This document shows, in pieces, positions 3,932-26,530 of a stretch of 64,000 nt of DNA. Both the position numbers and the translations under genes were made by a program. Origin of the DNA: Actinomycetes bacterium (lineage in GTDB: Bacteria; Actinomycetota; Actinomycetes; Propionibacteriales; Nocardioidaceae); the NCBI GenBank assembly GCA_023396115.1, contig JAEWXC010000051.1, positions 21,425 through 85,424 on the forward strand. Reading direction: 5' to 3'. The stretch's first letter is position 1. Each line of letters opens with the position of its first letter. Under the pieces are notes generated by a model, which was not told where the DNA came from, made no database searches, and worked only from the letters and a program-made list of their open reading frames with translations.

Positions 3932-3953
3932 GGTGGTGCAGTCAAGCCGAAGT

Positions 3954-11565: not shown

Positions 11566-11568
11566 GCC

Positions 11569-12099
11569 TCAGGGAACCAAAGCGACGAGATCCTCCCACC
11601 CGTCCAGTGCTTCTGGGAGCTTTGAAGTCCCATAGTTGTCGGCCTCGTTCGTCAGAGTGTTTCTGATCAGAGATGCGGCGATCGCTGTCCCGTTCTGCCC
11701 CTGCATGCACTCAGGCGAGTCAAGTTTCTCCGAGGTGCACTTTTTCGCCATCGCTCCCATCAGCCGAATCAGCAGGTCTCCCAGTTCACTGATGGGTTTC
11801 ACCAAGGCGCAGTCGTTTGCCTCGGCTCTGGAGATGTCCAATGCGGCGTTGGCGTCGATGAACTCCATCATCGGGTCGGCCACGCCGCGAACGCCCTCGT
11901 CAGATGTGGTTACTGCCTTAAGCAAAGGGTCGGCCAGCGAAGAGACCATCTCTTCGCAGGCTTCTTTCCGGCCCTTCGAAACCTCAGGCGACTGGCCCTT
12001 TTCTCCGCAACTTGTCAGGAGAGTAGCAGTTGCAAGGACCGCCACCAGCACGGTGAGGTACGCGCGAGACGGGGAGCGACGGTTCATGCCATGAATCAC
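11569..12099 (-). CDS. Hypothetical lipoprotein (visibly lower G+C than its surroundings)
   Basis: 176-aa ORF with a signal peptide and lipobox (LLTSC|GEK). Many A/T-ending codons contrast with neighbouring genes. The start may be 12099 or 12087. Confidence 0.6.
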   Translation of the reverse strand: MIHGMNRRSPSRAYLTVLVAVLATATLLTSCGEKGQSPEVSKGRKEACEEMVSSLADPLLKAVTTSDEGVRGVADPMMEFIDANAALDISRAEANDCALVKPISELGDLLIRLMGAMAKKCTSEKLDSPECMQGQNGTAIAASLIRNTLTNEADNYGTSKLPEALDGWEDLVALVP

Positions 12100-12342
12100 C
12101 CTGTGAGACTAGTTCACCATCAGCATCCGCGCGGCGTTTCGTGCGCAGGGACGGGGCCAAAGGACGGCGATTCAACCCGCTGACTGTTACGGTTCGCGGA
12201 ACCATTAAGACCGAGACGGGACAGGACTGCTACCGCAATCCCCACCCCAAGACCGAGCCAAGCGTGCGGACCACCGCTCCTCCGACCTTAGCCGCGGGGG
12301 CCCTTCGACGTCACCTGGGCGAAGCAAGCCCAACAGCAATCG

Positions 12343-12580
12343 TTGCGGGTGCTCGCCACCCGCAACGACACATGGCTCCAGGTGTCGAACGCCGCGATGA
12401 CGGGAAATCAGTGTGCACGCGAACCTGGACTGAATCACTCCACTCGCGTTCTGCAAGACCGTCGCAACTTTGATCGCAGAGGAGCTGAACCCCGAGGCTG
12501 CTGCCCAACAGCTCGGGCACTCTTCCTCCGGCGTGACCCGACGGCATCTCCAAGCCAGCCGTTTCTGCCAATGCCCATAA
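12343..12580 (+). pseudogene. Tyrosine-integrase 3' remnant (frameshifted)
   Basis: One frame reads RVLATRNDTWLQVSNAA. A second frame reads AFCKTVATLIAEELNPEAAAQQLGHSSSGVTRRH, then a stop at 12578-12580. These match the conserved C-terminal boxes of actinobacterial phage-type integrases. No intact N-terminal part lies upstream. Confidence 0.6.
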
Positions 12581-12715
12581 ACTCCCTGGAGCGGCTCACA
12601 GACCCAGACAAGCCCGCACCGAAGATGGAATATGTGGGGAGTAGGTGCGGAACGGGGCGTTGCTGGTCGTAAGGCAAACCGGCCCTGACTCAGCGTTTCC
12701 GCTGGCCAGAGCCGG

Positions 12716-12765
12716 TTCTTCGGTCGGGCTGACAGGATTTGAACCTGCGACCCCCTGACCCCCAG
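12716..12765. repeat. attL: 50-bp exact direct repeat, the displaced 3' part of tRNA-Pro
   Basis: TTCTTCGGTCGGGCTGACAGGATTTGAACCTGCGACCCCCTGACCCCCAG is identical to 28377..28426. The flanking bases differ on both sides. Confidence 0.9.
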
Positions 12766-13018: not shown

Positions 13019-13876
13019 ATGACGAACCCTAGCCACACCCCAACCCCGGCCCCCGGCACCTGCCCGGCCAACACGCCGTGGTGCAACCGCCACGACCACG
13101 ACCTCGGCCACTGCAACCACGACGTCGACGTCACTGGCATGCGGTACATCACCCTGTCCAACGGCACCCTGTCCGGCGAGCTGAAGGTGTTCGGGCTGCA
13201 CGACGCCCCGGAAGCCCTCACCCTGGGCGCGCTCGATGAGCTCGTGGACACCCTGACGTCGCTGCAGTCCATGGCCCGAACCGGCGCGGCCGCCGCACCC
13301 GCACCCGACGTCGAGCACCAGGCGTGGTGTGTCGAGCACGACACCGCCGGCAACTTCTGCTGGTCCCGGACCATCGAGGTCGCCGGACTGCAGTTGCAGC
13401 TCGCGAACTCCGACGGCACCCCGATGGTGGTTGGTCTCGACGACGCCGCGATGCCCGACGCCCTCACCCTCGACGGCGCCCGGCTGCTGTCGAGGGCCCT
13501 GGCCCAGCTCGAGGACATGGCCACCGGGCAGCTGGCGTGCAGTCGCGGCACATCATGGTGCACCGCGGAGGACACCGACGAGCACGCCACCGAGTGCATG
13601 TCCGCTGAAGTGCTGGTCCGGCCCGGGGCCGGGTCGGAGTTCTGCCTGTACCTGGTCGCGAAGGCCAGCGACACCAGCACGGTGTGGGTCGCGGTCGACG
13701 GCCGCCACCAGGGACGGTTGCTGTCGGGGGTTGTGCCGGTGCAGGACGCCCTGATGGTGACGTCGCGGCGCCTGGGTGCCTCGGACGCGATCCAGGGGCT
13801 CCTGGCGGCAGTGGCGTTCCCCCAGGGCCGTGCGTTGGTGCTGGAGCTGCTGGCAGCGGCGGGCGCAGCATCGTGA
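13019..13876 (+). CDS. Hypothetical protein with three tandem Cys/His-motif modules (W-C-x-x-x-D/H ... C)
   Basis: Strong third-position G+C in this frame. Three modules are visible: PWCNRHDHDLGHCNHD, QAWCVEHDTAGNFCWS and TSWCTAEDTDEHATECMS, each followed by a similar segment of about 60 aa. An alternative TTG start is at 12995. Confidence 0.65.
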   Translation: MTNPSHTPTPAPGTCPANTPWCNRHDHDLGHCNHDVDVTGMRYITLSNGTLSGELKVFGLHDAPEALTLGALDELVDTLTSLQSMARTGAAAAPAPDVEHQAWCVEHDTAGNFCWSRTIEVAGLQLQLANSDGTPMVVGLDDAAMPDALTLDGARLLSRALAQLEDMATGQLACSRGTSWCTAEDTDEHATECMSAEVLVRPGAGSEFCLYLVAKASDTSTVWVAVDGRHQGRLLSGVVPVQDALMVTSRRLGASDAIQGLLAAVAFPQGRALVLELLAAAGAAS

Positions 13877-14337
13877 CGGCGGTCGCGGCTCCTCCGCGGG
13901 TGGGTGTCGACTGGTTCCCGGCGCCGCAGGCCGCGCGGATCGCCCGGGTCACCAAGCCCACGATGTACGGCGCGCTGCGCAACGGCCTGGTTGTGGGCCG
14001 CCGGGACCCGAGGTTCGGGTGGCTCGCGGAGGCGGGGTCGCTTCAGGTCTACGCCGACAGGCTGGCTGAGCGTCGCGCCGCGGCGGAGCGACGGGCCGCC
14101 CTGGGGCCGACCGGGGCGACGGAAGAGAAGGTGCTGCCGGCAGGGCCCCTGTTGGCGGCGCTGGCCGCGGCCGGCGGAATCTACGCCTGTGGTGCCCGGG
14201 AGGGGTCCGCTGAGGAGCGGGCGGTGCTGCGTGCCCGGCGGGCCGGCTGGTTGACGCTCGCGGCGGGTGACCGACTGGCGGTCCGGCTGCTGGGTCGGCA
14301 CCCGGTCGAGTTGTGGGGTGATCTGGTGTTCGCGTGA
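13873..14337 (+). CDS. Hypothetical protein with an N-terminal excisionase/MerR-like HTH
   Basis: The GTG start overlaps the upstream stop (GTGA). HTH-like segment WFPAPQAARIARVTKPTMYGALRNGLVVGRR. Good third-position G+C. Confidence 0.55.
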   Translation: MTAVAAPPRVGVDWFPAPQAARIARVTKPTMYGALRNGLVVGRRDPRFGWLAEAGSLQVYADRLAERRAAAERRAALGPTGATEEKVLPAGPLLAALAAAGGIYACGAREGSAEERAVLRARRAGWLTLAAGDRLAVRLLGRHPVELWGDLVFA

Positions 14338-14421: not shown

Positions 14422-17217
14422 TCAGTCGACACGTGCGTTCCTCCTGCCGTGGACGGCCATGCCGTTGATCTGCCGGACCGCCCTGTTCGCGACACGGTCG
14501 TCTCGGCCCTTGCCCTGGTTCTTGATCGCGTTCAGCGCCTTGTTCGCGTCCCGCAACTGCGCCTTCATCTCCCGCAACTCCCGGTTGGACTCCCGCAGCT
14601 GCTCCCCGTACGCAGCGTTCGCGGCACTCACACCCGCGGCCTGTGCTTCCTGCGCGCGGAGGTTGTAGAGCCGCTCGTACTCCCGGACCTGCTGCGTCGA
14701 CCAGTTCGCCATGGCCTGCACCTCGGACAGGTCGCCCTTCGCGATCAGCTCGTCCAGCGCCGCCCCGTCGAGGCCCTTCCCGGCAAGCGTTGCGCGGGCC
14801 TTCTGCAGCGCAGCGATCTCAGCGCGGTCGGCCTGGATCTGTGCGGTGGGGTCGAGGGCGGGGTTGGTGAACGCGTTCGATTCGCCCCCGAACAGGTCGG
14901 ACTTGTAGCGGTCAGCGACCGACGCGGCCAGCGTGTCGAACGCGCCCTTGAGCTGGTCACGGACAGCGGTCTCGGCAGTGATGGCCTTCCGCGACTTCTC
15001 CACCTGCGCGGCGAGGCGCTCGAACTTCTCCAGCAGGTTGGGGAGGACCATGTCGCCGGTGGATGCCTGGATCAGCATCCGCGACTTCCCCTTCGCGTCG
15101 CGGCTCCCACCGACCGGGCCACCGGCCGCGAACTTCGGGATCCGCATCGCGTTGAAGTCGTGCATGAACTGCTCGCCGTAGTGCTCGACGGCGGCGGCGC
15201 GCATCATGAACTCGCCGTTGCTGGCCCAGATCGGGACCTCGTCGCTCGTGCCCGTACCCGGGCCGCGGATCGGACCACCCATCGCCTTGTCCTGTGGGCC
15301 CATGCCGGTGTTGCCCTTGGAGATGCCGCCGGAGGAGTTGATCCGCACCGTGACGGTCTTGTCCTTGATCTGCGCCATCGCGGTCCGCAGCACCCGCAAA
15401 CGGTTCATCGCCTCATCGGACTTCACACGCACGCCAGTCTCGATGTCCGGCAGCCGCGAGGCGTCGGTGGCGGCCGCCACGAAGTCCTCGATCGCGCCCT
15501 GCCCCCGCTTCCAGGCACGGTTCGCGCGGGCAATCTCCTTGTCCGAGGCGTTCGCGAGCTGCTGCATCCGCCGAGCACCCTCCGGGCCCGCGGCCTTCAA
15601 CTGCTCGATCAGGCCCTGCTTCACACCCTTCTCGCCGGCCCGCTCAGCGTTCGCCGTGAACCGCTTCAGAGCCCGGTTCTGCTCCTCGAGCTCCTTCAGC
15701 CAGTCGCTGAACGACACCTTGTTGTCGTCGAGGGACTTCCCCAAGTTCACGAACCCGCCGGCAGTGTCCCGGGCCGACTTCGCGACCTTCTCCAACGCCT
15801 TCGCCTCAGCCTCAGACGACTGTGCGACCGCGACCTGCTCCCCAGCGAGCGAGCGGGACGACGTGGTGGCGACGTCCAGCTGGGACCGCATCCCGTCCAC
15901 GACCTCGGTGATCGTCATGAACGGCTCGTCGGAGTCGTCGAACTGGTCCCACACGTTTCCGAGAGCGTTGGCCACCCCGAGCATGGGGTTCGTCACCGAC
16001 GTCCACAGCCCCTCAACCTTGAGCGGCCCCACCGACGCCAGATCATCCAGCTCGGTCTGAACCTCCCCGATCACCCCCAGGACAGCCGTGGCGCCGCTGA
16101 GGATCGCTCCGAACGCCCCGAGAGACCCTTCGCCGTGACCGATCATGGTGGTCTCCAGCGTCCCCATGAACTCTTCCCAGGCGCCCTTGGTGTTGTTCAT
16201 CCGCTCCGCGGCCGTCTCAGCCGCGTACCCGGCGTCGTCGACCATTCGGGTCCACTCCGCGACCCCACCAGCGCCTTCGCGGTACAGCACGTTCGCGGCC
16301 TGCAGCTGCTCGTTGCCGAAGATCCGGCCCAGCGCCGACGCCCGCTCCGCGTCCGACAGCTTCCCCATCCGGGACTGCAACTGCTGGGCGACGCCCTCGA
16401 ACCCGACGAACTTGCCCTGCGCGTCGAACACGCTGATCCCCAGCGCATCCATCTCGTTCTTCGCGGCCTTCGACGGCGACGTCAGCGACGACAGCATGCC
16501 CCGCAGCGACGTACCGGCCTGCTCGCCGATGACACCGTTCTTCGCGAGCAACGCGATCGTGCCGGCGGTCTCCTCGATCGACACCCCGAGGTTCGCGGCG
16601 GGGACACCGGCGTAGTTCAGGCCGTTCGCCATGTCGGCGACCTCGCCCTGTGCCTTGCCGGCACCGGCGGCGAGGAGGTCGGCGACGTGGGACGCCTGGT
16701 CACCGGCCAGCTGGAACTGGGTCAGCGCAGTGGCGGTGTACTCCGCAGCATCGGCGACAGCGAGCTGTCCCGCTGCGGCGAGGTCTAGGGCGCCGGCCAG
16801 GCCACCGGACAGGATGTCCTCGGTGGACACACCGGCCTTGGCGAGGTTCTCGATCCCGGCAGCAGCCTCGGTCGCCGAGAACGCAGTGTCTGCGCCGGCC
16901 TTCTTCGCGGCGTCTGCGAGGGCGTCCATCTCCTCGGCGGTGCCGTGGGTGGCTGCCCGGACGTTCGACATGCCCTGCTCGAAGTTGGCCGCCGACATGA
17001 CGACCGCGCTGCCGATCGCGGCGACGGAGACGTTGGTCGCCACACCCAGGGCATCGAGCTCACCCAGAAGGCTCTTGCTCTTCTGCTGCGACGCGCGCGA
17101 TGCCTCGACAACCTGCTCAGTGGACTGGGCGGCCTTGGCCATCGCCTGCTCGTACTGCGCGGTCTCCGCGCGGAGTTTCACGAGGAGGGTGCGGACTTCA
17201 CTGCTCACCGGGGTCAC
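14422..17217 (-). CDS. Phage tail tape measure protein (TP901-family core)
   Basis: 931 aa. Typical TMP core: AAKKAGADTAFSATEAAAGIENLAKAGV..ADMANGLNYAGVPAANLGVSIEETAGTIALLAKNGV..GRIFGNEQLQAANVL. C-terminal TMP motif GPGTGTSDEVPIWASNGEFMMRAAAV. Confidence 0.9.
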   Translation of the reverse strand: MTPVSSEVRTLLVKLRAETAQYEQAMAKAAQSTEQVVEASRASQQKSKSLLGELDALGVATNVSVAAIGSAVVMSAANFEQGMSNVRAATHGTAEEMDALADAAKKAGADTAFSATEAAAGIENLAKAGVSTEDILSGGLAGALDLAAAGQLAVADAAEYTATALTQFQLAGDQASHVADLLAAGAGKAQGEVADMANGLNYAGVPAANLGVSIEETAGTIALLAKNGVIGEQAGTSLRGMLSSLTSPSKAAKNEMDALGISVFDAQGKFVGFEGVAQQLQSRMGKLSDAERASALGRIFGNEQLQAANVLYREGAGGVAEWTRMVDDAGYAAETAAERMNNTKGAWEEFMGTLETTMIGHGEGSLGAFGAILSGATAVLGVIGEVQTELDDLASVGPLKVEGLWTSVTNPMLGVANALGNVWDQFDDSDEPFMTITEVVDGMRSQLDVATTSSRSLAGEQVAVAQSSEAEAKALEKVAKSARDTAGGFVNLGKSLDDNKVSFSDWLKELEEQNRALKRFTANAERAGEKGVKQGLIEQLKAAGPEGARRMQQLANASDKEIARANRAWKRGQGAIEDFVAAATDASRLPDIETGVRVKSDEAMNRLRVLRTAMAQIKDKTVTVRINSSGGISKGNTGMGPQDKAMGGPIRGPGTGTSDEVPIWASNGEFMMRAAAVEHYGEQFMHDFNAMRIPKFAAGGPVGGSRDAKGKSRMLIQASTGDMVLPNLLEKFERLAAQVEKSRKAITAETAVRDQLKGAFDTLAASVADRYKSDLFGGESNAFTNPALDPTAQIQADRAEIAALQKARATLAGKGLDGAALDELIAKGDLSEVQAMANWSTQQVREYERLYNLRAQEAQAAGVSAANAAYGEQLRESNRELREMKAQLRDANKALNAIKNQGKGRDDRVANRAVRQINGMAVHGRRNARVD

Positions 17218-17509
17218 CGTCCTTCGTCTGCGGTGGGTTCACCGACTCTTCCCGCCGGTGCCACATCCAAGTGCTGGTCATCGCCGACAGCCCGAAGGTG
17301 TGGAGATCACCCTCAGGCGTGTAGGGCAGGTTCACCAGGAGCGTCTGGATCACGTTCTCGTCGAGCACATCGGAGAACTCCAGCTGCTGCGAGGAGCGCA
17401 GCAACGCCTCCGCCTGCTCCCGGGCGACCGCCATGCGCATGGCACGCAACGCCGTCGCCGCCTCGGTTGCCGTGAGACGCGACTCGACGTCCGGTGGCGT
17501 GCTGCTCAC
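17198..17509 (-). CDS. Hypothetical small protein, paralog family with LP[YLF]T-x-x-G-x-L motif
   Basis: 103 aa. Helical N-terminus, then LLVNLPYTPEGDLHTFGL. The ATGA junction with the upstream gene suggests coupling. It overlaps the TMP start by 20 nt. Confidence 0.55.
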   Translation of the reverse strand: MSSTPPDVESRLTATEAATALRAMRMAVAREQAEALLRSSQQLEFSDVLDENVIQTLLVNLPYTPEGDLHTFGLSAMTSTWMWHRREESVNPPQTKDGDPGEQ

Positions 17510-18462
17510 GACACAGCCCCCTCGCCCAACACCTGGATCGACTGTCGCTCCTGCCGCTCCATCGACGCTGCCACCGAGTCGCGCGCCATCACTGCCTCAG
17601 CCAACTGGGCCTCCAACGACGGCGTCCGACCCAAGCCGATCCCCACCACCTCGGTCGAGACAGTCTCACCGGCTGCGATCCGTGCCTCCAGCTGGTTGAC
17701 CTGCCTGCGACGCTCAGCCAGGGACTCCCGGCACTGGTCCAACAAGCCCTGGTGACGCTCCCGCGTCTCGACGTACAGCGCGACAGGAACCAACGAATCC
17801 GGGCTCCACACACAGGCCGGGAAGAACTCATGTGACGGGACGTCGCTCGTCGCGCCCCACCACGCACCAGCCTGGGGGGCAAGCGGATCTCGACCCGCAG
17901 CCAACTCGCGCAGCACCCACACGTCCCGCCGACCCTCCCGGGCCTCGTTCGAGATGACCTCCGACGTCGGGATCGTCCACGAGTCCGGCAGACCCGCCAC
18001 ATACGGCCGAAGATCGTTGCGGACCCGCGCCAACTCCTGCTCGGTGACGTACGGGCCATCGTGCTTCACCAACGCAGCGAGGAGCCGCTCTGTCTTCGCG
18101 TTGTGCGCTTCCAACCGTGCTTCGATCTCCAGCACGGGCACCTCGTGCAGGTCAGCCTGGGCAGCCAGCCACGCCGACTCCGCTTCCCGCACACGCGGCC
18201 CTTGGGCCTGCTGCGCTGTCTGGGCGATACCGATCCGATCCCGCAGTTCCCGCAGGAGTTTCGGCACCTCCTCGAGGGCATCCGGGTCGCTCAGGTACGC
18301 CTCGCCCGACGTCGCTTCCACGCGTGCCAACTCGTCACTTGCTTCGACCTCCCGGGCCGCCCACTGCGCCAGCACCGCGCGGGCCTCGTGCACCGCGACC
18401 TCCGCGGCCTGCACGGCACGCTCTGCAACGGTCTTCGCGTCCTCGTCAGGATTCTCGGTCAT
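17506..18462 (-). CDS. Hypothetical 318-aa protein, A/E/R-rich, apparently coiled-coil at both ends
   Basis: Long ORF with 4-nt overlaps to the genes on both sides. I recognise no family and see no obvious capsid or portal motifs. Confidence 0.65.
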   Translation of the reverse strand: MTENPDEDAKTVAERAVQAAEVAVHEARAVLAQWAAREVEASDELARVEATSGEAYLSDPDALEEVPKLLRELRDRIGIAQTAQQAQGPRVREAESAWLAAQADLHEVPVLEIEARLEAHNAKTERLLAALVKHDGPYVTEQELARVRNDLRPYVAGLPDSWTIPTSEVISNEAREGRRDVWVLRELAAGRDPLAPQAGAWWGATSDVPSHEFFPACVWSPDSLVPVALYVETRERHQGLLDQCRESLAERRRQVNQLEARIAAGETVSTEVVGIGLGRTPSLEAQLAEAVMARDSVAASMERQERQSIQVLGEGAVS

Positions 18463-18728
18463 CGGTACCCCCCGGACTCGGCGACGGCCTTCACGGTGAT
18501 GGACCGCAGCCGGGGTTCATCCAACGCCCCCGACTCGGTCAACGGCAGGTCGGCCAGCAGCCCCCTGATCGCCAGCGACGACAATTCCTCTCGGCAGTCG
18601 AGCAGCTGCCTGGAGATGACCTCACGTGCCCTGGCCTCACGCTCCAGCACCAGCACCCGGGCCTCCGCCGCCGTAGCCCGCGCCACCGCCGCGTCACGTG
18701 CCGCGAGCGCCTCCACCAGCGTCGTCAC
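18459..18728 (-). CDS. Hypothetical small protein, paralog family with LP[YLF]T-x-x-G-x-L motif
   Basis: 89 aa. Helical N-terminus, then LLADLPLTESGALDEPRL. 4-nt overlaps on both sides. Confidence 0.55.
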   Translation of the reverse strand: MTTLVEALAARDAAVARATAAEARVLVLEREARAREVISRQLLDCREELSSLAIRGLLADLPLTESGALDEPRLRSITVKAVAESGGYR

Positions 18729-19051
18729 GAGGCACCGCCCGCACTGAGCAGGAGATCCTCATGCGCGGCCCACAGCCGCCCCTGATGCAGCGCCCGGAAC
18801 GCCGGCTCATGCAGCTGCCCGTCCGCAGTGAACGGCAACACCCCCAGTGACTCCCGCGCGACCCGTGACTCCACGTCCACGCTCGACACCGACTCACCAG
18901 CAGCCAACAGTTCGTAGGCCCTGGTCTGCGCGTTCGCCGCGTTGATCCGGTCCTGCAACTCCCGAGCACGCAACGCGCCCGCCTGCAGCTCGATTAGCCT
19001 CTTCCGGGACACCTTCACCATCCCGGGCCGGGCCCGCCACGGCCACCTCAT
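18725..19051 (-). CDS. Hypothetical small protein, paralog family with LP[YLF]T-x-x-G-x-L motif
   Basis: 108 aa. Helical N-terminus, then LGVLPFTADGQLHEPAF. 4-nt overlaps on both sides. Confidence 0.55.
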   Translation of the reverse strand: MRWPWRARPGMVKVSRKRLIELQAGALRARELQDRINAANAQTRAYELLAAGESVSSVDVESRVARESLGVLPFTADGQLHEPAFRALHQGRLWAAHEDLLLSAGGAS

Positions 19052-19428
19052 CGGCGCAACGCCTCGCGCACCGCGGCCTGCTTCTCCTCGAACCGCCGGC
19101 CAGCCTCACGGATGCTGGCAGTGGTCACGCCCGGCGCCAACCGCCGCCCGTCCGGCCCGTACCCGGAGCCGTACGCGGACCAGGCTCCCGCCAGGGAAGC
19201 GCACATGTCCTCGAAGTCGATGAACGCGTGCTGCTCCCACAACTTCACGCCCCGCTCGACCATGCCGTCGTCGAACCCGGCATCGCGAAGCGACTGCTTC
19301 ACGCGAGTCACCTCACCGTCACCCAGGGCCTCGTCGACCAGGACTTCCTCGACGGTGGTGCCCCGGCCGAACGCCCGCGCCACCGCCTCCTGGACCTGCC
19401 GGTCCATCCGCTGCTGTTCACCGCTCAC
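19048..19428 (-). CDS. Hypothetical protein
   Basis: Start re-set to GTG 19428 (VSGEQQRMDRQVQEAVARAF), preceded by GGGAAGG; an ATG at 19407 is an alternative. The upstream part of the track ORF overlaps the preceding gene's 3' end (19463-19554) and its W/R/G-rich translation looks non-coding. Confidence 0.5.
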   Translation of the reverse strand: MSGEQQRMDRQVQEAVARAFGRGTTVEEVLVDEALGDGEVTRVKQSLRDAGFDDGMVERGVKLWEQHAFIDFEDMCASLAGAWSAYGSGYGPDGRRLAPGVTTASIREAGRRFEEKQAAVREALRR

Positions 19429-19462
19429 CGGTGCCTGCCTTCCCGGCAGGTCTCCCGGACAC

Positions 19463-20068
19463 TCAGCCGGCCTGCCTACGCTCCAGTTCTGCAGCCACCG
19501 ACACCTCGTCGATGACCCACGTCCGCCCCACCAGGTGACCGACCAGCCGACCACCGCGGACCAAGTTCGTGATCTGCTTCCTGGTCAACCCGAGCCGGTC
19601 GGCCACCTCCCGGGTTGTGAGGCCCGGCTGTGAGGAGGACACACCTGAGCCTGCACGCTCGGACTCACGCGGAACTTCCGCATTTCCGCTGACGGAAGTC
19701 GCTCCCGGGACGAACCTGGCCTGCCACTCCCTCGACGCCTGGCGAAGCTCCGCCACCGAAGCCAACACCTGCCGGCCCGCAGCGCCACCCACACCCGACT
19801 GCTGCACGAGCCCCCGTCCCTTCGCCTCGAGGCGCCGCAGCACGTCTGGGTGATCGCGGACCAGCAGGTACGCCACTACCGGCGGCACCGTCGCGGAGAG
19901 CAACACCCGAGTGTCATCCACCGGCCCGTTCACCGCCCACCGCCGACCATCTGGGCGGGTGACCTGTCTCCCCGCAGGAAACAGCCCGGAAGGGACGTGA
20001 AAGAGCCGAAGCACGACCACAGCCAGCCGCGACATGCCCTCGACAAGCCGACCCGACGAGCCAAGCAC
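19463..20068 (-). CDS. Hypothetical protein with a C-terminal excisionase-family HTH
   Basis: 201 aa. C-terminal LTTREVADRLGLTRKQITNLVRGGRLVGHLVGRTWVIDEVSV is HTH_17-like. The start is uncertain (GTG 20068 or ATG 20038). Confidence 0.6.
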   Translation of the reverse strand: MLGSSGRLVEGMSRLAVVVLRLFHVPSGLFPAGRQVTRPDGRRWAVNGPVDDTRVLLSATVPPVVAYLLVRDHPDVLRRLEAKGRGLVQQSGVGGAAGRQVLASVAELRQASREWQARFVPGATSVSGNAEVPRESERAGSGVSSSQPGLTTREVADRLGLTRKQITNLVRGGRLVGHLVGRTWVIDEVSVAAELERRQAG

Positions 20069-20296
20069 CGCGGTCGCCCGGACCGCGCACGCACCACCGC
20101 CGACATCACAGACCTGACCGCCCGTGTGAACGCGGTCACCGACCTCGTCAACGCGGACTCCGACCTGGGGATCGCGGTGCTCAAGTTCGTCGGTGTCCTA
20201 GTCGCCCTGGCCGTGTTCCTCGTCGGTACGGCCGGGGGTGTGACGGGGGGTGCACCTACGCTCCCCGACGCCACCCCCAACTCGAGGAGCACCCAC

Positions 20297-21007
20297 ATGA
20301 CGAAGACCCCTGACCAGTACCTCCTGGCCCTGCACGCCACCCTCCAGGCACGCAACCTGACGGCCGTCGACCCGGCAGACGTGAACACCGGCCTGCGACT
20401 CACCGCCGAGCAAGGAGACGCCCACGTCCAGGACCTCCAAGAAGCCGGCCTCGTCACCACGCAGCCGTCTCGCCACGCGGGGGGCCGCATGATCTGGCTC
20501 ATCGGGCTCACCCCCTCCGGCCACGCCCGGGTGCGGCACCTCGATGACGACCAGCGCGGCGGCCCACTCCAGGCGGCTCCTGGAGACGACTGGGTCGCCC
20601 GGGACCTGCCGGTGCTGCGACTCGCAGCAAGCGCCGAGCAGCGCGGCCACGGCCTGACCCCTGACGACTTCACCGAACACCTGGGCTTCCGCATGCGCGA
20701 CGTCGACCACGCCATGTTCCGGCTCCGAGACTTCGGGTACCTCACGTTCCGGAGGGAAGCCGGCGGCGAGTACGAGTCCATCCGCGTCACCGAGAAGGGC
20801 GCACGGGAAGTCGGGGTCTGGCCGACCCCCGAGGCCGCCGTAGACCGCCTGATCGCAACACTCGAAGCGCTGGCAGCCGACGAGACCCTGCCCCAGGAGG
20901 AACGCTCGAAGGCTCGAACGTTCGCCAAGTGGCTCGCCTCGACCACCCAAGCCGTCGTCCTCGGCATCGGGACCTCACTGGCGGCAGGCCAGATCCCCGG
21001 CCAGTAG
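20297..21007 (+). CDS. Hypothetical protein with two winged-helix-like modules, encoded opposite to the flanking genes
   Basis: ATG 20297 is preceded by GAGGAG 7 nt upstream. Two similar modules: DAHVQDLQEAGLVTTQP...IGLTPSGHARV and DVDHAMFRLRDFGYLTFRRE...IRVTEKGAREV. The frame stays open and coding-like upstream to GTG 20126, which would add a TM helix. Confidence 0.6.
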   Translation: MTKTPDQYLLALHATLQARNLTAVDPADVNTGLRLTAEQGDAHVQDLQEAGLVTTQPSRHAGGRMIWLIGLTPSGHARVRHLDDDQRGGPLQAAPGDDWVARDLPVLRLAASAEQRGHGLTPDDFTEHLGFRMRDVDHAMFRLRDFGYLTFRREAGGEYESIRVTEKGAREVGVWPTPEAAVDRLIATLEALAADETLPQEERSKARTFAKWLASTTQAVVLGIGTSLAAGQIPGQ

Positions 21008-21011
21008 CCCC

Positions 21012-21287
21012 TCACGCCCCGGCCACCTTCCGGTCGGCCGGGGCCGTCCCACCCCACACACCCTCACGCTCACACCCAACCAACGCGTACGCCAGACACT
21101 CACCCCGCACAGGGCAACCACGACAGGCATCCACCGCAGCGTCGACGTCACCCGGCTTCGTCGACCACCACCGCGCCGGGGTCACCTGACACGGCACCCG
21201 GCGCACAGCGTGGACCGCAGCCACCAACTCCAACCACGCCTGCCGCGCAACACCCGACGGCACCCACCCCGGAGCCGCGGTCACCAC
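21012..21287 (-). CDS. WhiB-family (Wbl) iron-sulfur transcriptional regulator
   Basis: 91 aa with four Cys in the Wbl pattern (PC...AC-RG-C-PVRGE-C), followed by the GVWGG turn. It overlaps the terL stop by 7 nt. Confidence 0.85.
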   Translation of the reverse strand: MVTAAPGWVPSGVARQAWLELVAAVHAVRRVPCQVTPARWWSTKPGDVDAAVDACRGCPVRGECLAYALVGCEREGVWGGTAPADRKVAGA

Positions 21288-22723
21288 GACACCCCGTCAT
21301 ACGGGGCGATGCTGAAGCCCCCCGGCCCGTCTTCCTCACCGAACAACTCCTCCTCCGTCACCACCCGATCCATCACAGGGACCAACTCCCCCGCCACCAA
21401 CGGCTGCAACGCCAACGCGAACGACATCGCCACGTCGTCATGCCCAGCCCGCTCCGGCACCGCAATCCGCATCCCCCCACCGTCCAACGCCGTGAACTCC
21501 AACGCACCCAACTGCCGCAGCAACGCCGGATGCCGCGGCAGCACTAGACGCCCCTGCTGCATCAACAACTTCGCGAACCCGAACAGGTCCTCCTTCAACC
21601 GCGCCGTCGTCGCCACCGGCACCACCCGCTCCCACCCCGTGGCCTCCCAGACCCGACGCGCCAACACCTGAGTAGGCATCTGCCCCACCCCGTTCGTCTC
21701 CGCCGTCAGCACCTGCAACCGCAGCAACCCCACCGCGTCAACCAACCGGTCGATCCACCTCTCGTAGGACAACCCGAACCGCTCCTCCACCAACGCCACC
21801 ACGTACCGCGCCCGCCCCCGCGCATCCGGCTCCGACAACCCCGCGACCACCGTCAACGCATGCGCATCCCGAGCCATCCCCCAGTCCACGCCACCCACCA
21901 CCGCCCCCAACCCCGCCAGCACCCCCGGATCGCTCTCCAGAGTCACCAGCTCGACCCCCTCATCCGTCGCAGCCTCCAGCTCAGCCGTCGTGAAGTACGC
22001 CCCAGCCGAATCCGTCCACTTCGCCAAGTACTCCCGCTCGAAGTACGCCGGCGTCTCCCGCTCACGGATCGCCTCCAGAAGCACGTCGTCAACCAACGGG
22101 GACGTCGACGACGGCCAATGCCACGCCTCCAACTCACCCGACGGCGCCGCCTGCGCCCGGGTCCACAACGCCCGGAAGAAGTGATCCGGACCGCCCCACG
22201 GCGACGACGACAGCACCACCCGAGCCCCAGGCCGGGCGATGATCGCCGGCTCCGCAGCCCGCCAGATGTCCGGATCGATGAACGCAGCCTCATCCACGAT
22301 CAGCAGATCCACCGACCACCCCCGAATCTGCGCCGCCGAAGCCGGCACAGCACGCACCACCGAACCGTTCGACAGGCTCACCGCCTTCGACGACTCATCC
22401 ACCACCGACCCGGCCAACACCGGCGACCCCAAGGCCAACGCCGCGACGTCCTCCAGAAGCCGCTTCGCGGCCGTGTCACCAGCCGACACCAGCAGCACCA
22501 TCGAACCCGGCACCGCGAACGCCCGATGCAGCGCAATGACTGCCAGCAGGCGAGACTTCCCAACCTGCCGACCAGCACAGACCACCCGATACCGCGCCTT
22601 CGACCGCACCACCTCAACCTGGTGATCCCACAGCGGAGTGCCGAGGAGCAGCCGCGCGAACACGCTCGCATCACGTCGCGCGTCGTCCAGGTCCTGCAAC
22701 CCCAGTTCAGCCATCGCCGACAC
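21281..22723 (-). CDS. terL: Terminase large subunit
   Basis: 480 aa. Walker A VVCAGRQVGKS and Walker B LLIVDEAAF. The C-terminal nuclease-like half has VGGVDWG and AGHDD. Confidence 0.9.
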   Translation of the reverse strand: MSAMAELGLQDLDDARRDASVFARLLLGTPLWDHQVEVVRSKARYRVVCAGRQVGKSRLLAVIALHRAFAVPGSMVLLVSAGDTAAKRLLEDVAALALGSPVLAGSVVDESSKAVSLSNGSVVRAVPASAAQIRGWSVDLLIVDEAAFIDPDIWRAAEPAIIARPGARVVLSSSPWGGPDHFFRALWTRAQAAPSGELEAWHWPSSTSPLVDDVLLEAIRERETPAYFEREYLAKWTDSAGAYFTTAELEAATDEGVELVTLESDPGVLAGLGAVVGGVDWGMARDAHALTVVAGLSEPDARGRARYVVALVEERFGLSYERWIDRLVDAVGLLRLQVLTAETNGVGQMPTQVLARRVWEATGWERVVPVATTARLKEDLFGFAKLLMQQGRLVLPRHPALLRQLGALEFTALDGGGMRIAVPERAGHDDVAMSFALALQPLVAGELVPVMDRVVTEEELFGEEDGPGGFSIAPYDGVSW

Positions 22724-23240
22724 CGGCCTGCTTGTCGCGCTCCAACTGCTCCAGCCGCGCCATCGCCTTCGCCACGTCCGCGTTCGCCGCCTGCCCCTGC
22801 GCCACGTGCTTCCCCATCCGGGCCGCTGCAGTCGGGGTCAGGCCCAGGCGGGACCTGGACGACGACGCCCGCCCCTCGGCCCGATGCAGCAGCAGATACG
22901 CCGCCCGCACTGACTCCGACCCCAGGTCGCCCACCGGTTCGCCACACCGCTCGCCCTGCTTAGCCAGCCACTCGCTGATCAACTGCACCTGCGCCTCCGC
23001 ACGCCCCAAGGCGTACAACTCGGCTCGATACGCCGGCGCCTTCACGTACCCCGGCACTGTCGGATCAGCCAGCATGAGCGCCACGAACTCAGCCGCGAGC
23101 GGCTCAACCCAGCGCGGCGAGTACGCGCCGTGCGTCGACGCGGCCAGCGTGTTCCCCGGTTCGAACGGCGGCCGCTGCCCCGCGAACGCCGGCACCCAGC
23201 CGGCACCTGCGCGGGCATCCGTCTCCTGCGGTTCACCCAC
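22707..23240 (-). CDS. Putative terminase small subunit
   Basis: 177 aa, immediately upstream of terL and overlapping it by 17 nt. It has a helical C-terminus (RLGLTPTAAARMG...). The call is mainly positional. Confidence 0.55.
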   Translation of the reverse strand: MGEPQETDARAGAGWVPAFAGQRPPFEPGNTLAASTHGAYSPRWVEPLAAEFVALMLADPTVPGYVKAPAYRAELYALGRAEAQVQLISEWLAKQGERCGEPVGDLGSESVRAAYLLLHRAEGRASSSRSRLGLTPTAAARMGKHVAQGQAANADVAKAMARLEQLERDKQAGVGDG

Positions 23241-23844
23241 GCCGACCCCCAGCCTTCACACTGCAGCCATGGCTCACGACCTCGATGGCGACGACCTGAC
23301 CGGCACTCCCTGCCTCGGCACCGACTGCTTCGACACCGCAGAGGTGATCGACCAGCTCGCCGTCCGACTCCCCCTGGACGTCGGTGCAGTCGAGGATTCG
23401 GTTCGCCTCGACCTGCCGTTGTGCGGCCACCACGCCCACCTGCTGCGAATGGGCGGCACCAGGTACAGCTACACGTCCCGCGAGTGACCCACGAGCCACC
23501 GCGAGGCCACATGTCCCGGAGTCAAGAGGCCACCCTCTGACCTGCACAAATACACCCCGTGTGTGCAGCGTGTGTGCACCCTGCCCACGCCCGACCACCA
23601 CCGCACCCACGACCCAAGCCAAGGCGCGCGGGGCATCTCCACAACGAGAACGGAGCCGAACAGCACCGGCCCGGCGTCGGTGGTACACGCGCAACCATCC
23701 CGCCATGGGGATCAGTCGTCCGTCGCCGTACTTGATGCACCAGTTGGTGGTCGCGGGGATGAACGAGGCGAGGTCTTCGACCATGTCCCTGGGGAACAGT
23801 CCTTCTGGGAGGTGCAGCGCTTGGCTGCCGACCTGGGTGGTCAT
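23233..23844 (-). CDS. Hypothetical ORF coupled to the RepA-like gene; only the first 55-60 codons look coding and the 3' extent is doubtful
   Basis: ATG 23844 overlaps the RepA-like stop (ATGA). The N-terminus MTTQVGSQALHLPEGLFPRDMVEDLASFIPATTNWCIKYGDGRLIPMAGWL has good codon bias, and the bias collapses afterwards. The ORF then runs antisense to the better-looking + strand ORF at 23269..23487. Confidence 0.3.
   Translation of the reverse strand: MTTQVGSQALHLPEGLFPRDMVEDLASFIPATTNWCIKYGDGRLIPMAGWLRVYHRRRAGAVRLRSRCGDAPRALAWVVGAVVVGRGQGAHTLHTRGVFVQVRGWPLDSGTCGLAVARGSLAGRVAVPGAAHSQQVGVVAAQRQVEANRILDCTDVQGESDGELVDHLCGVEAVGAEAGSAGQVVAIEVVSHGCSVKAGGRRG
23269..23487 (+). CDS. Hypothetical small acidic Cys/His-containing protein
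   Basis: 72 aa (MAHDLDGDDLTGTPCLGTDCFDTAEV...LCGHHAHLL...). Third-position G+C is clearly higher than in the overlapping minus-strand frame. Promoter space is very short (28 bp to the terS start). Confidence 0.4.
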   Translation: MAHDLDGDDLTGTPCLGTDCFDTAEVIDQLAVRLPLDVGAVEDSVRLDLPLCGHHAHLLRMGGTRYSYTSRE

Positions 23845-25154
23845 GCTGCGTGGTCTCCGTTCGGCTGGGGAGGTGTGGCGGTCTTGTCTTCCCTGTCACG
23901 ACCTCCCTCCCTATAAGGGAGGTTGGGGAGGTCGTTTGGCTTCCCTGCGGGGAGGTCTGGGGAGGTCAGGGAGGTCAGGGAATCTGGGTTGACTCCTGGG
24001 GCGAATCCGAAGAGCCGGGAGTTCCGCGGGCCGGCCTTGGAGACCAAGAGGGAGCCGCGGTCGGGGCGCTCGAGCATCTGCGCGGCGTTCTTGGCGTCGC
24101 CCTTGGAGTGGCGGATGTCTGCCTCGCCGTCCTTGATCATCTTGGCGATCGCGGTGTCGAGCTGGCTGGCGGAGACGAACTGGGGGTGGTGTTCGTGGAG
24201 CACCTCTAGTACCAGCGGGATGAGGGCTTCGCGTCGGCTGTACTCGGCGGCGGACCTCCGTGAGCCGGCGCCGTCGAGGGTCAGGAGCCGTGTTGTCTCG
24301 TTCATGGAGATCCGGTCTTCGGCGACCAGGACGTCGCGGCCTTCGGCGCGGAGGTAGCGGTGTCCGTCCTCGCCGCGGGTGACGTTGATGATGGTGTCCG
24401 CCCAGTCTTCGAGGGCGGTGGAGCCGCGGCTGCGTTCACCGTTCCAGCCGGCGTGTGCGGCGAGGACGATGTCACGGGCGCCGACTGCGCCGCGGCCGAA
24501 CCTGTCGAGGTCTGCGAGGAACCCGCCGACTTCGCCGGGGTCGTTCTGGTTGGTGCCGGTGAAGGCGCGGCCGAAGGGGTCGATGATCAGCATTTCGGTC
24601 TCCATCTCGCGCAGCTTCTGTGCGAGCGCGGTGGAGTCTTCGGGGCTCGCGAGTGGGTTCCGGCGGCCGCGGAGGTTCACCAGGAACATCCTGTCGTGCG
24701 GGATAGATAGGTCGTTGGCCCAGGCAGCGACGGTTTGTCCCGACACCTCGAAGTTGAGGAACGCGACCCGGCCGGTGAGCGGGGTGACGGGGAACTTGCC
24801 GAGGAAGTCTTCACCGAGCAGGGCGCTGCGCGCCAGGTTCAGCTGGAGCGACGTCTTGCCGGTCTTGCGTTGGGCGACGATCAGGGTGCCGCCGTCGGCC
24901 GGGATGATGCCCTCGGCACGGTGCTTCGGCTCCGGGGGGCGCGCCAGGATGTCAGCGAGTAGGCCCGCGTCGAACGGCGGGAGGCCTTCCGCGGCTGCTC
25001 GCTCGGCCCTGAGTCGCTCTCGGGCAGCGTCGCGGATCTTGAGTCGCCTGGTCTCGGTGGCGACCTGCTCGTTGAACTTGATCTGCTGATGCGCTTCGTC
25101 CCACTCGTCCGGGGGCGGCTCCAACTCGGTGGGGCCTCGCTCGATGTCGTTCAC
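23841..25154 (-). CDS. RepA-like RecA-fold AAA ATPase (AAA_25-type replication/helicase-loader-like protein)
   Basis: Start re-set to GTG 25154, overlapping the upstream stop (GTGA). Walker A LIVAQRKTGKTS and Walker B EMLIIDPFGRAF. The N-terminal 75 codons of the track ORF are P/R-rich and were rejected. Confidence 0.8.
   Translation of the reverse strand: MNDIERGPTELEPPPDEWDEAHQQIKFNEQVATETRRLKIRDAARERLRAERAAAEGLPPFDAGLLADILARPPEPKHRAEGIIPADGGTLIVAQRKTGKTSLQLNLARSALLGEDFLGKFPVTPLTGRVAFLNFEVSGQTVAAWANDLSIPHDRMFLVNLRGRRNPLASPEDSTALAQKLREMETEMLIIDPFGRAFTGTNQNDPGEVGGFLADLDRFGRGAVGARDIVLAAHAGWNGERSRGSTALEDWADTIINVTRGEDGHRYLRAEGRDVLVAEDRISMNETTRLLTLDGAGSRRSAAEYSRREALIPLVLEVLHEHHPQFVSASQLDTAIAKMIKDGEADIRHSKGDAKNAAQMLERPDRGSLLVSKAGPRNSRLFGFAPGVNPDSLTSLTSPDLPAGKPNDLPNLPYREGGRDREDKTATPPQPNGDHAA
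23900..23985. repeat. Iteron-like cluster: inverted repeat ACCTCCCT/AGGGAGGT plus at least 4 direct GGGGAGGTC-type repeats (candidate replication origin)
   Basis: ACCTCCCT (23901-23908) pairs with AGGGAGGT (23916-23923). GGGGAGGTC occurs at 23925, 23949 and 23959, GGGAGGTC at 23969, and a degenerate AGGGAATC at 23977. The cluster lies inside the last 50 or so codons of the RepA-like gene. Confidence 0.7.
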
Positions 25155-25507: not shown

Positions 25508-25905
25508 GCGGCACCGCCTGGCGTGGTGGTGACCAGTCGGGCGACGTGGAGCTCCCGTCGGGGCGTCGCTTTGGGGCTCGTCGGGCGTGAGGGCCCTCCG
25601 GGCCCGGGGGTGGGTGGCTCGGGGATCCAGAAGCAGATGGCGCCGTACCAGGCGTTGCAGGCGCGGCTGGTGCCGACGAGTTCGAGGTGGTGGCCGCGGG
25701 CGACGGCCCGGCCCAGCTGGTCCAGCAGTCGGCTGTCGAGCTCGCAGGGGGTCTGGTGGTCGTGGACGGAGATCGTCACTACCTCGCCGGTCGGCTGGCT
25801 CTCGGCCAGGGCGGCGGCGTCGCTGAGTGCTTGGCGGCCGGTGGTGACGTCGATGACGTGGCGGACCGTGAGGGTTCCTTGCCTACGCGGAGTGTGGGAG
25901 GGCAT
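25504..25905 (-). CDS. Hypothetical protein
   Basis: Start re-set to ATG 25905 (MPSHTPRRQGTLTVRHVIDV...). The upstream part of the track ORF is P/S/R-rich. Confidence 0.5.
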   Translation of the reverse strand: MPSHTPRRQGTLTVRHVIDVTTGRQALSDAAALAESQPTGEVVTISVHDHQTPCELDSRLLDQLGRAVARGHHLELVGTSRACNAWYGAICFWIPEPPTPGPGGPSRPTSPKATPRRELHVARLVTTTPGGAA

Positions 25906-26227
25906 GGTGGGTGTGCTCCGATCCGTTGCTGTGGGGGTGAGCGTCAGTGGTGGCCGCCTCTTCGCCCGGGGCGGCCCTGCTGTTGTCGGGGGCCGGGAGG
26001 CCGAGGATCTGTGCGGCGGTGTCTGCTGGCAGGCCGAGGGTCTCGGTGAGGAACCGGTGAGCCGGCACGACGCGGCGTTGCGTGCCCAACTGCAGGCTGG
26101 GGATCCGGCCTTCGCGTGCGGCCTGGTAGGCGGTGGCGCGGGAGATTCCGAGGATCTGGCCGGCTTCGTCAACACCGAGGGTGAGGCGGCCACGCAGGTC
26201 CTCGACGGCCAGGTGCCGGGTTGTCAC
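25883..26227 (-). CDS. Excisionase-family HTH DNA-binding protein (second Xis-like gene)
   Basis: GTG 26227 overlaps the upstream stop (GTGA). The HTH is LTLGVDEAGQILGISRATAYQAAREGRIPSLQLGTQRRVVP. Confidence 0.55.
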   Translation of the reverse strand: MTTRHLAVEDLRGRLTLGVDEAGQILGISRATAYQAAREGRIPSLQLGTQRRVVPAHRFLTETLGLPADTAAQILGLPAPDNSRAAPGEEAATTDAHPHSNGSEHTHHALPHSA

Positions 26228-26412
26228 GCCGTCCGCTCCCCGGTGAACGCCGCTTCGATCCACCGGTCCACATCCGAAGCGCGGTACATGACACGCCGAC
26301 CGATCCGCGCGGCCCTGGGGCCGACGCCTCGGTACCGCCAGTCCTGCAGCGTGGTCACCGGGACGCGCAGGATCTCCGCAACTTCCTCGCTCATGAGCAG
26401 CCGCTCCGCCAT
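26224..26412 (-). CDS. xis: Excisionase / AlpA-type HTH protein
   Basis: 62 aa. LLMSEEVAEILRVPVTTLQDWRYRGVGPRAARIGRRVMYRASDVDRWI is a classic HTH_17 excisionase fold signature. The gene is divergent from the repressor-integrase pair. Confidence 0.75.
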   Translation of the reverse strand: MAERLLMSEEVAEILRVPVTTLQDWRYRGVGPRAARIGRRVMYRASDVDRWIEAAFTGERTA

Positions 26413-26530
26413 GAATATTCTCCAATCGGTTGACGTTCATCCCGTCAGGGATTACCGTCAACCTAACGAACCAATCGGACTGAACCCAGACCTTTCGGGG
26501 GTACAGTCCAACCCCATGGAGGATATTTCG
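26413..26530. promoter_or_regulatory. Divergent switch region between xis and the XRE repressor, with nested repeats (candidate operators)
   Basis: Direct repeat CCAATCGG (26422 and 26471). Inverted repeats GGTTGACG (26428) / CGTCAACC (26456) and TGACG (26431) / CGTCA (26443). Confidence 0.5.

Follow-up and report, generated by a model that had tools for sequence, protein, structure and literature searches.

A Terminase and Tape Measure Island Without Capsid or Portal Genes in the Actinomycetota: A Candidate Family of Phage Satellites

Introduction

The window analyzed here is a stretch of 64,000 nucleotides from an actinobacterium of the family Nocardioidaceae (assembly GCA_023396115.1, contig JAEWXC010000051.1, positions 21,425–85,424), and it harbors a phage-like island of 15,661 bp. 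The DNA has a high GC content and matches an ENA metagenome scaffold (LEMO22-1, scaffold_160). The island is delimited by perfect 50-bp direct repeats, the right copy being the 3′ part of a tRNA-Pro(GGG) gene (Table 1), and the 28-nt core of the repeat occurs twice in the whole window against zero occurrences expected by chance. Base composition also sets the island apart: its GC content is 0.68–0.70 against 0.72–0.74 in the flanks, and the GC content at third codon positions (GC3) is 0.81–0.91 in island genes against 0.92–0.98 in host genes. Outside the island the window is housekeeping DNA, with cmk, der, scpA/B, pyrG, recN-like, and xerD-like genes. All open reading frames (ORFs) of the island are intact, and the genes of its late operon overlap by 4–20 nt. 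The island is an intact, integrative element and a member of a large actinobacterial family. The only recognizable virion or packaging genes on its 15.66 kb are those for the small and large terminase subunits (TerS and TerL) and for a tail tape measure protein (TMP). Here we describe the island and its relatives, and discuss whether such an element could live as a helper-dependent phage satellite.

Gene Content of the Island

Table 1. Features of the island and of its boundaries, with positions in the window.
Feature	Position	Strand	Evidence or remark
Left attachment repeat (attL core)	12716–12765		Copy of the tRNA-Pro 3′ end
285-aa accessory protein, three Cys/His-rich repeats	13019–13876	+	Gene call
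154-aa accessory protein, possibly DNA-binding	13873–14337	+	No family match
Tail tape measure protein (TMP), 931 aa	14422–17217	−	PF10145 2.3e-51, phrog_1533 8.9e-90
103-aa helical protein	17198–17509	−	Paralogue of the 89-aa and 108-aa proteins
318-aa all-helical protein, putative TMP-linked partner	17506–18462	−	AlphaFold2 model and gene linkage
89-aa paralogue, small helical family	18459–18728	−	
108-aa member, small helical family	18725–19051	−	In related islands its orthologue sits right before the 318-aa gene
119-aa protein	19048–19407	−	Homologues in L002 and L195; no family match
HTH_17 DNA-binding protein	19463–20068	−	PF12728 3.9e-7, phrog_57 3.6e-5; first gene of the TMP operon
336-aa opposite-strand accessory protein	19997–21007	+	Predicted membrane anchor, winged-helix-like repeats
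WhiB-like transcription factor	21012–21287	−	PF02467 2.7e-11
Terminase large subunit TerL (ATPase and nuclease)	21281–22723	−	phrog_2 1.7e-38
Terminase small subunit TerS, P27/HK97-like	22707–23240	−	Conserved directly upstream of terL
72-aa Cys/His-containing ORF	23269–23487	+	Antisense, in the gap between replication gene and terS
AAA_25 (RepA/DnaB-like) replication ATPase	23841–25154	−	PF13481 1.9e-27, phrog_906 2.8e-15
Small early genes encoding 118 aa and 133 aa	25151–25905	−	Gene calls
Two HTH_17 (excisionase/AlpA-like) genes	25883–26412	−	PF12728
Divergent control region, candidate operators	26413–26530		Low GC; separates the XRE and HTH_17 genes
XRE-type regulator (candidate repressor), 170 aa	26531–27043	+	phrog_5823 2.8e-5
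Tyrosine integrase	27040–28368	+	PF00589 3.2e-24, phrog_1 1.3e-69
Right attachment repeat	28377–28426		Inside tRNA-Pro(GGG), 28383–28458, minus strand

One half of the island holds the genes for integration, control, and replication. The XRE-type regulator has additional matches to HTH_31 (1e-4) and HTH_3 (6e-4), both below the Pfam cut-off, and it is divergent from two helix-turn-helix (HTH) genes of the HTH_17 type that encode proteins of 114 aa (25883–26227, minus strand) and 62 aa (26224–26412, minus strand). These early HTH_17 genes are conserved in related islands, including the circular member pDJL3 described below. The divergent control region between the XRE and HTH_17 genes contains a 16-nt inverted repeat at 26428–26463 (88% complementary) and an 11-nt inverted repeat at 26477–26509. 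The 118-aa and 133-aa early genes have weak homologues in the related islands L087 and L002, and the AAA_25 gene of relatives adjoins, or is fused to, a Prim-Pol or DnaB gene. With its integrase, HTH_17 genes, AAA_25 ATPase, and att repeats, the island possesses integration, excision, and replication functions of its own, and the order of integrase, divergent regulators, replication gene, and TerS is the one known from PICIs (phage-inducible chromosomal islands) and SaPIs (Staphylococcus aureus pathogenicity islands). Promoter and terminator scans returned sites that were no more numerous than in shuffled sequence.

The genes named in the preliminary description of this DNA (an integrase, an XRE repressor, two Xis-like HTH proteins, a RepA-like ATPase, TerS, TerL, WhiB, and TMP) are all present by family matches, or in the case of TerS by conserved position. 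Its statement that head, portal, tail-tube, and lysis genes are not recognizable also holds: searches of Pfam and PHROGs with the island ORFs gave no match to any family of capsid, portal, protease, connector, tube, baseplate, lysin, or holin proteins. A lenient Pfam search with ten small unassigned island proteins gave no matches, and the portal, major capsid, and adaptor proteins of a related phage, used as queries, found no match in any island. The gene set that an intact siphovirus prophage carries between and after terL and the TMP gene (compared with L001, L173–L194, and Rhodococcus siphophage Mbo4) is absent.

One could imagine that the island is nevertheless a minimal virus in its own right, with capsid and tail proteins that have diverged beyond recognition and stand among the small unassigned proteins, and the ten island ORFs without a family assignment leave room for this idea. 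The sole conserved unassigned protein of more than 170 aa is, however, predicted to be all-helical and without an HK97, portal, or tube fold, while the two other ORFs above 280 aa lie on the opposite strand and are not conserved in sequence. The remaining unassigned proteins have fewer than 170 aa or are not conserved; they fall short of the length of a portal or major capsid protein, and complete phage relatives have portal and capsid genes that are readily recognized. A hidden virus of this kind is thus extremely improbable.

A Recurrent Island Family in the Actinomycetota

Approximately 20 islands from at least six actinobacterial orders have in common an integrase, regulators, a replication gene, and both terminase subunits, and most of them also carry a TMP gene. 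Fifteen have enough sequence for examination (the window island, L002, L005, L087, L088, L090, L172, L195, L003, L089, L092, L103, L189, L190, and L192/pDJL3); integrase, regulators, replication gene, and the TerS-TerL pair are found in all fifteen, and a portal or major capsid gene in none. TerL homologues number 497 at E < 1e-10, and their sources include Nocardioides, Modestobacter, Blastococcus, Yimella, Nonomuraea, Streptosporangium, Pseudonocardia, and Dermatophilaceae; Rhodococcus is also among the island-bearing genera, and the complete genomes with islands include those of Blastococcus colisei, Modestobacter SSW1-42, Nocardioides antri, Yimella, and Rhodococcus qingshengii. The layout is recurrent, beginning with integrase, regulators, one or more HTH_17 genes, and an AAA_25 ATPase (sometimes with Prim-Pol or DnaB), and continuing with TerS, TerL (sometimes with WhiB next to it), an HTH_17 protein of about 150 aa, small proteins, and a large TMP. 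Where both ends are visible, the islands measure 14.9–17.9 kb between tRNA-derived repeats, and they are inserted at tRNA-Pro, Leu, Met, Ser, and Arg genes, so that the same gene set does recur at other sites in related genomes.

The closest relative, L195, shares 82% identity with the window island in TerL, 86% in TerS, and 77% in the integrase, while its homologue of the 318-aa protein is just 38% identical. The replication gene of L195 (DnaB plus AAA_25, 2998–4425) has no detectable similarity to the AAA_25 gene of the window (23841–25154). From this differing replication gene and the diverged 318-aa homologue it follows that modules have been exchanged while the architecture was kept. In 10 islands a match to PF10145 or to a TMP PHROG identifies a TMP. 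PF10145-type TMPs are found in the window island, L005, L088, L090, L172, and L192, and phrog_934/305-type TMPs in L002 and L087, so TMP families differ even between close relatives.

Two members, L003 (3113–21019, Streptosporangium) and L089 (3644–18599, Pseudonocardia), are TerS-TerL islands between tRNA repeats that lack a TMP module. They carry a conjugation-like block instead, consisting of DUF2637 and a protein of about 675 aa with weak FtsK_SpoIIIE or nSTAND1 matches, and in L003 only, also a TraA-like gene. These two may be hybrid elements, part packaging island and part actinomycete integrative and conjugative element (AICE). The L172 contig was examined as a possible circle; it has no terminal overlap and breaks at the tRNA repeat. 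IMG/VR contains only a few family members, and none are found among deposited phage genomes.

The breadth of this family bears directly on the idea of a decayed prophage, in which a siphovirus would have lost its head, tail, and lysis genes by deletions and left a non-functional mosaic. In its favor, TerS-TerL and TMP are of phage origin, and the regulators lying between packaging and tail genes do look rearranged. Against it, the reduced gene set is common to about 20 islands that are independent of one another, belong to different orders, occupy different tRNA sites, and have intact repeats; one member is a circular episome; and the ORFs of the window island are all intact and overlapping, with the catalytic residues of TerL invariant. 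Moreover, the family possesses a replication module of its own and genes specific to the islands (the 318-aa family and the HTH_17 gene) that related phages lack. We therefore regard decay as very improbable and this reading as largely refuted. Of the alternatives raised in the preliminary description, neither a mosaic relic nor a simple internal deletion finds support.

Terminase Genes and the Related Siphophage Lineage

In TerL of the window island, the Terminase_6N match (6e-10) passes the Pfam cut-off and Terminase_6C falls below it. The Walker A, Walker B, and acidic nuclease residues are invariant among the 27 sequences compared. TerS taken alone has no significant match, the best being Terminase_4 at E 0.017, and its profile found no match among PDB sequences. 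However, the TerS gene overlaps the start of terL in every relative, complete phages included, and 7 of 9 TerS orthologues match PF05119 (best 4e-5). The AlphaFold2 (AF2) model is helical, with a predicted local distance difference test score (pLDDT) of 88, and Foldseek with this model places the HK97 small terminase at ranks 2, 3, and 14, not significantly. We call the gene TerS on the basis of its conserved, terL-overlapping position, the PF05119 matches of its orthologues, and the helical model. The gap between the replication gene and terS is a candidate packaging-recognition region, and it contains the 72-aa antisense ORF, which matches no family and has small antisense counterparts at the same position in L087 and L005.

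Related TerS-TerL pairs are found in a prophage of Subtercola vilae (L001) and in ten IMG/VR or metagenome contigs. In these eleven siphophages, complete or partial, the terminase pair precedes genes for a portal, a MuF-like protein, a scaffold, a major capsid protein, an adaptor, and a major tail protein, and the TerLs of the islands are 41–62% identical to theirs. In a neighbor-joining TerL tree (31 sequences, 200 bootstraps) the phages form a single clade (100% bootstrap) nested among the island TerLs and sister to one island subgroup (98%), and the islands are monophyletic to the exclusion of the phages in 0% of bootstraps. The tree and the identity values together place the packaging pair of the islands within a genuine siphophage lineage, which is a natural place to seek helpers. 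A search of 50,697 deposited phage genomes gave no match to TerS or to the 318-aa protein, and the best TerL match is about 30% identical. Searches of genome contigs for close relatives with single-protein patterns returned only the Subtercola prophage, and TerL-alignment scans of IMG/VR and metagenomes were mostly uninformative, with generic T4-like terminases filling the matches listed.

The Tape Measure Operon

The TMP of the window island, which is 928 aa long in the deposited source gene call, is 43–50% identical to TMPs of Arthrobacter siphophages. The 318-aa gene just upstream of it belongs to a family with at least 150 cluster representatives. Its AF2 model, built on an alignment of 89 sequences, is all-helical and of high confidence (pLDDT 93.8, predicted template modeling score 0.87), with a long helical hairpin formed by helices 9–58 and 62–135. 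Foldseek comparison of this model with PDB and BFVD gave nothing significant, only generic coiled-coil matches with E > 0.04 and template modeling scores < 0.3, and a profile search of PDB sequences gave coiled-coil noise only. A hidden capsid, portal, or tube protein is therefore rejected, the model being all-helical and without a match to any such fold.

The gene neighborhood of the 318-aa protein is more informative. A hidden Markov model (HMM) of the family locates its gene 0–0.5 kb upstream of a large TMP or TMP-like gene in all seven islands that carry both (the window island, L002, L005, L087, L088, L090, and L172); L195 and L171 carry a homologue as well, and their sequence stops before the TMP position. 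Three islands without a TMP (L003, L089, and L103) gave no match to the HMM, nor did pDJL3 and the phage relatives, and a motif scan of IMG/VR found none. Since the gene is found with the TMP gene and never with a head gene, the 318-aa protein is more likely a TMP partner or chaperone. The earlier speculation that it is a scaffold or capsid-size remodeller is unsupported for the same reason. Neither the 318-aa nor the 103-aa protein matches a tail assembly chaperone, and their connection to the TMP is one of gene neighborhood.

The 103-, 89-, and 108-aa proteins flanking the 318-aa gene are paralogues with a common LPxTxxGxL motif (103-aa versus 108-aa, pairwise E 4e-5), and the reading frame of the 103-aa protein overlaps both the 318-aa gene and the TMP gene. 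Relatives have a single copy of this small helical protein or a two-domain fusion; in L195, a two-domain copy (10274–10840) follows the 318-aa homologue at the position of the 103-aa gene. The HTH_17 gene at the head of the operon probably uses an internal start that would give a product of about 150 aa, and an HTH_17 gene for about 140–155 aa stands between terL and the TMP module in most relatives, with orthologues matched by sequence in L002, L087, and L195 and HTH_17 genes at the same position in L005, L088, L003, and L172. WhiB is also present in L002, L087, L088, and L195. The gene calls deposited for the scaffold omit both the WhiB gene and this HTH_17 gene, which have clear family matches and orthologues.

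pDJL3, a Circular Member of the Family

A tblastn search of plasmids identified pDJL3 of Rhodococcus qingshengii djl-6-2 (NZ_CP025962.1, L196), a complete circular sequence of 15,865 bp with genes for an HTH protein, an integrase, an AAA ATPase, TerS, TerL, a tail assembly chaperone, a TMP of 1439 aa, and a DnaB-N protein. It was deposited as a “non-mobilizable plasmid”, and the identical sequence stands in IMG/VR as a predicted virus (L193). Its TMP is collinear with that of Mbo4 (52% identical over 97% of the length), and the 149-aa gene just upstream is a homologue of the tail assembly chaperone of Mbo4 (E 1e-18). The rest of pDJL3, including TerS-TerL, has no match to Mbo4. The terminase and TMP/chaperone modules are of phage origin. 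From the intact tRNA-bounded islands and from pDJL3 together it follows that the family is intact and mobile and can also occur as a free circular molecule. A literature search found no description of this island family or of pDJL3.

A stable circular replicon also invites the interpretation that these are integrative plasmid-like elements that are never encapsidated, in which TerS-TerL would resolve or process replication concatemers and the TMP would have some other role, for example in envelope penetration or in virion-free DNA transfer from cell to cell. The pairing of TerS-TerL with an AICE-like block in L003 and L089, a weak match of one TMP to an SLT lytic domain, and the lack of a known helper are all in keeping with it. 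On the other hand, the TMP of pDJL3 with its bona fide tail assembly chaperone makes sense solely in tail assembly, and among the family matches of the window element there is no relaxase, FtsK/TraB, or other transfer gene. No role of a terminase or TMP other than in virion assembly is known to us, which likewise counts against this interpretation, and we judge it unlikely.

Comparison with Known Satellite Systems

Several groups of phage satellites share part of the organization seen here. The closest parallel for the tail module is PLE11, one of the satellites of phage ICP1 in Vibrio cholerae (PLEs), which is small and integrative and carries its own TMP and TMP chaperone with no tube, sheath, or baseplate genes (PMC12987554). 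Experiments have shown that the PLE11 TMP and chaperone replace those of the helper and produce chimeric tails (PMC12987554). The tail assembly chaperone and TMP of pDJL3 form a comparable pair, and in the window island the position of the chaperone is occupied by the 318-aa and 103-aa proteins, which have no chaperone match; like PLE11, the island encodes a TMP of its own. Unlike the island, PLEs have no terminase, and the helper that they depend on, a lytic myovirus, infects a Gram-negative host (PMC12987554). PLEs belong to a different phylum and host, and no sequence relationship to the island is apparent, with no PLE sequences compared. No counterpart of Rta, the TMP inhibitor of PLEs, was identified on the island, and no dedicated test for one was run.

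Capsid-forming PICIs (cf-PICIs) resemble the island in having an integrase, regulators, a primase or replicase, and both TerS and TerL (PMC10085698; 10.1101/2022.09.08.507074), and putative tmp genes are present in some of them (PMC12987554, Extended Data Fig. 10). They are defined, however, by their own capsid, portal, protease, and head-tail adaptor or connector genes, none of which was found on the island. Classical PICIs and SaPIs share with the island the integrase, divergent regulators, excisionase/AlpA-like gene, replication gene, TerS packaging module, size of about 10–16 kb, and site-specific insertion, whereas they use the TerL of the helper, have no TMP, and in many cases carry capsid-size redirection genes. 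PICI-specific genes were not found on the island. The phiRv1/phiRv2-type elements of Mycobacterium have genes for a capsid, a prohead protease, and a serine integrase, and are not known to carry a TMP. They are small, integrative, phage-like elements of Actinomycetota as the island is, and SatelliteFinder scores them as PICI-like (PMC10085698).

Among actinobacterial satellites, the EPIPs of Mycolicibacterium aichiense have TerS and a TMP, and their tail length differs from that of the helper (PMC12822802). They differ from the island in their size of about 11 kb, a serine integrase, a reported major capsid protein, scaffold, adaptor, and stopper, and the lack of TerL (PMC12822802). The island TerS and 318-aa protein match nothing in the 50,697 phage records, in which the presence of EPIPs was unchecked. 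The Streptomyces satellites MulchRoom, MiniFlayer, and Ando (PMC10690885; PMC13587820) also have actinobacterial hosts, a small genome, and their own terminase, and they carry portal, capsid, and scaffold but no tail genes, the opposite structural complement to that of the island. The hallmarks of an AICE are lacking as well, with no FtsK/TraB-type translocase or Spd proteins in the window and the TraA-like/DUF2637 block confined to the relatives L003 and L089. As far as found, TerS-TerL and a TMP with its chaperone, without a capsid or portal gene, is a new combination.

A Satellite Model and Its Alternatives

The island is a small mobile element without a complete virion gene set, and we consider it probable that it lives as a helper-dependent phage satellite. 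This remains the best supported part of the preliminary description, which had suggested a satellite with its own packaging motor and tail-length ruler. It is supported by the recurrence of the gene set in about 20 intact islands, by the circular member, by the kinship of the TerS-TerL pair with a complete siphophage group, and by experimental precedents for TMPs encoded by satellites (PLE11, PMC12987554; EPIPs, PMC12822802). Upon infection or induction of a helper siphophage, the island would be excised by the integrase and HTH_17 proteins and replicated by means of the AAA_25 ATPase. Island TerS would recognize a site on island DNA, and island TerL would dock on the helper portal and fill helper procapsids. 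Several units of 15.7 kb may be packaged per full-size head, which is plausible because no capsid-resizing gene is in sight. The island TMP would then join the assembly of helper tails, with the 318-aa protein and its small helical paralogues keeping it competent, and give chimeric tails, whereas subfamilies such as pDJL3 would use a true tail assembly chaperone instead. TMPs of 931–1439 aa would correspond to tails of roughly 140–215 nm. This step is argued by analogy and is held more tentatively than the satellite lifestyle. Lysis by the helper would free the particles, and the integrase would insert the island into tRNA-Pro of a new host.

Another possible role for the same genes is anti-phage defence, with TerL, TMP, and the 318-aa protein acting mainly as decoys that poison packaging and tail assembly, while the island itself would hardly be transferred, if at all. 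Interference with the assembly of helper phages is common in satellites and prophages (PMC11364771; PMC10884400; PMC12987554), and the swapping of TMP families between close relatives is what an arms race would predict. No PADLOC defence family was matched, however, and a full-length TMP, a TerL that from its sequence looks active together with TerS, and modules for integration, excision, and replication exceed what interference would need. Defence as the main role is rather unlikely in our view; interference and satellite transfer are compatible with each other.

Several points weigh against the satellite model. No helper phage has been identified, and we infer packaging, mobilization, and the helper itself; the 64-kb window holds no helper prophage, and within 23241–23860 only weak repeats were seen and no packaging site was found. 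Encapsidated island DNA is not in evidence, and those IMG/VR members with readable identifiers come from isolate genomes and not from virus-particle samples. We found no described satellite with TerL and without a capsid and portal of its own, and the island TerL would have to fit a foreign portal. The function given to the 318-aa protein derives from gene linkage alone. TerS-TerL also occur in L003 and L089, elements with another possible route of transfer, and the persistence of pDJL3 as a plasmid makes it possible that the elements live as episomes and are not packaged. The TMP and terminase of pDJL3 come from different phage lineages, which makes a single matching helper hypothetical.

Extending the satellite model to the whole family gives a possible but more tentative picture of an undescribed, phylum-wide class of satellites that would hijack the head and tail of a helper, supply TerS-TerL and TMP/chaperone, and swap TMP cassettes, with some members carrying a conjugation-like module instead. 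In such a class, which we put forward with the same caution, the satellite would supply no more than two parts, both conferring specificity, with TerS-TerL as the motor that recognizes the DNA and TMP/chaperone as the core of the tail; TMP swaps might match or evade helpers, and there might be two alternative routes of transfer.

Accessory Genes and the Flanking Region

The 336-aa accessory protein has sub-threshold matches to MarR_2 and DUF2513; its sequence is not conserved, and an opposite-strand gene stands at the same place in several relatives. Beyond the TMP gene, the preliminary description had placed an HTH protein and a Cys/His-repeat protein. The latter is borne out by the 285-aa protein, in which a Trp-Cys…His/Asp…Cys motif occurs in three copies, and which has no Pfam, PHROG, or PADLOC match and no homologue in the other islands examined. 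The former would be the 154-aa protein, possibly DNA-binding; it has no Pfam match, and only its counterpart at the same position in Nocardioides antri has a weak match to HTH_17. No known defence family was found by PADLOC in the accessory genes.

Just outside the left repeat, a 1.7-kb stretch (11000–12700) has a GC content of 0.61–0.63, below both island and host, and contains a lipoprotein-like ORF (11569–12099, minus strand). There is no third att copy within the window, and the low-GC stretch thus has no att explanation. Elsewhere on the chromosome outside the island, two adjacent WYL-domain proteins are encoded at 1065–2995, and the window further includes two PG_binding_1 proteins and two VanY-domain proteins.

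Significance

Few satellites have been described from Actinomycetota, and those found carry capsid genes. If the satellite model is true, the portal of another phage can be served by a packaging motor that the satellite itself encodes, which raises the question of motor-portal compatibility, and a TMP-plus-chaperone module independent of the Vibrio PLEs would make chimeric tails a general satellite strategy. The family spans genera of environmental and industrial interest, among them Nocardioides, Rhodococcus, Modestobacter, Blastococcus, Streptosporangium, and Pseudonocardia, and given its under-representation in virus collections it could be an overlooked route of gene transfer. Because pDJL3 resides in a cultured and fully sequenced Rhodococcus strain, the model is directly testable.

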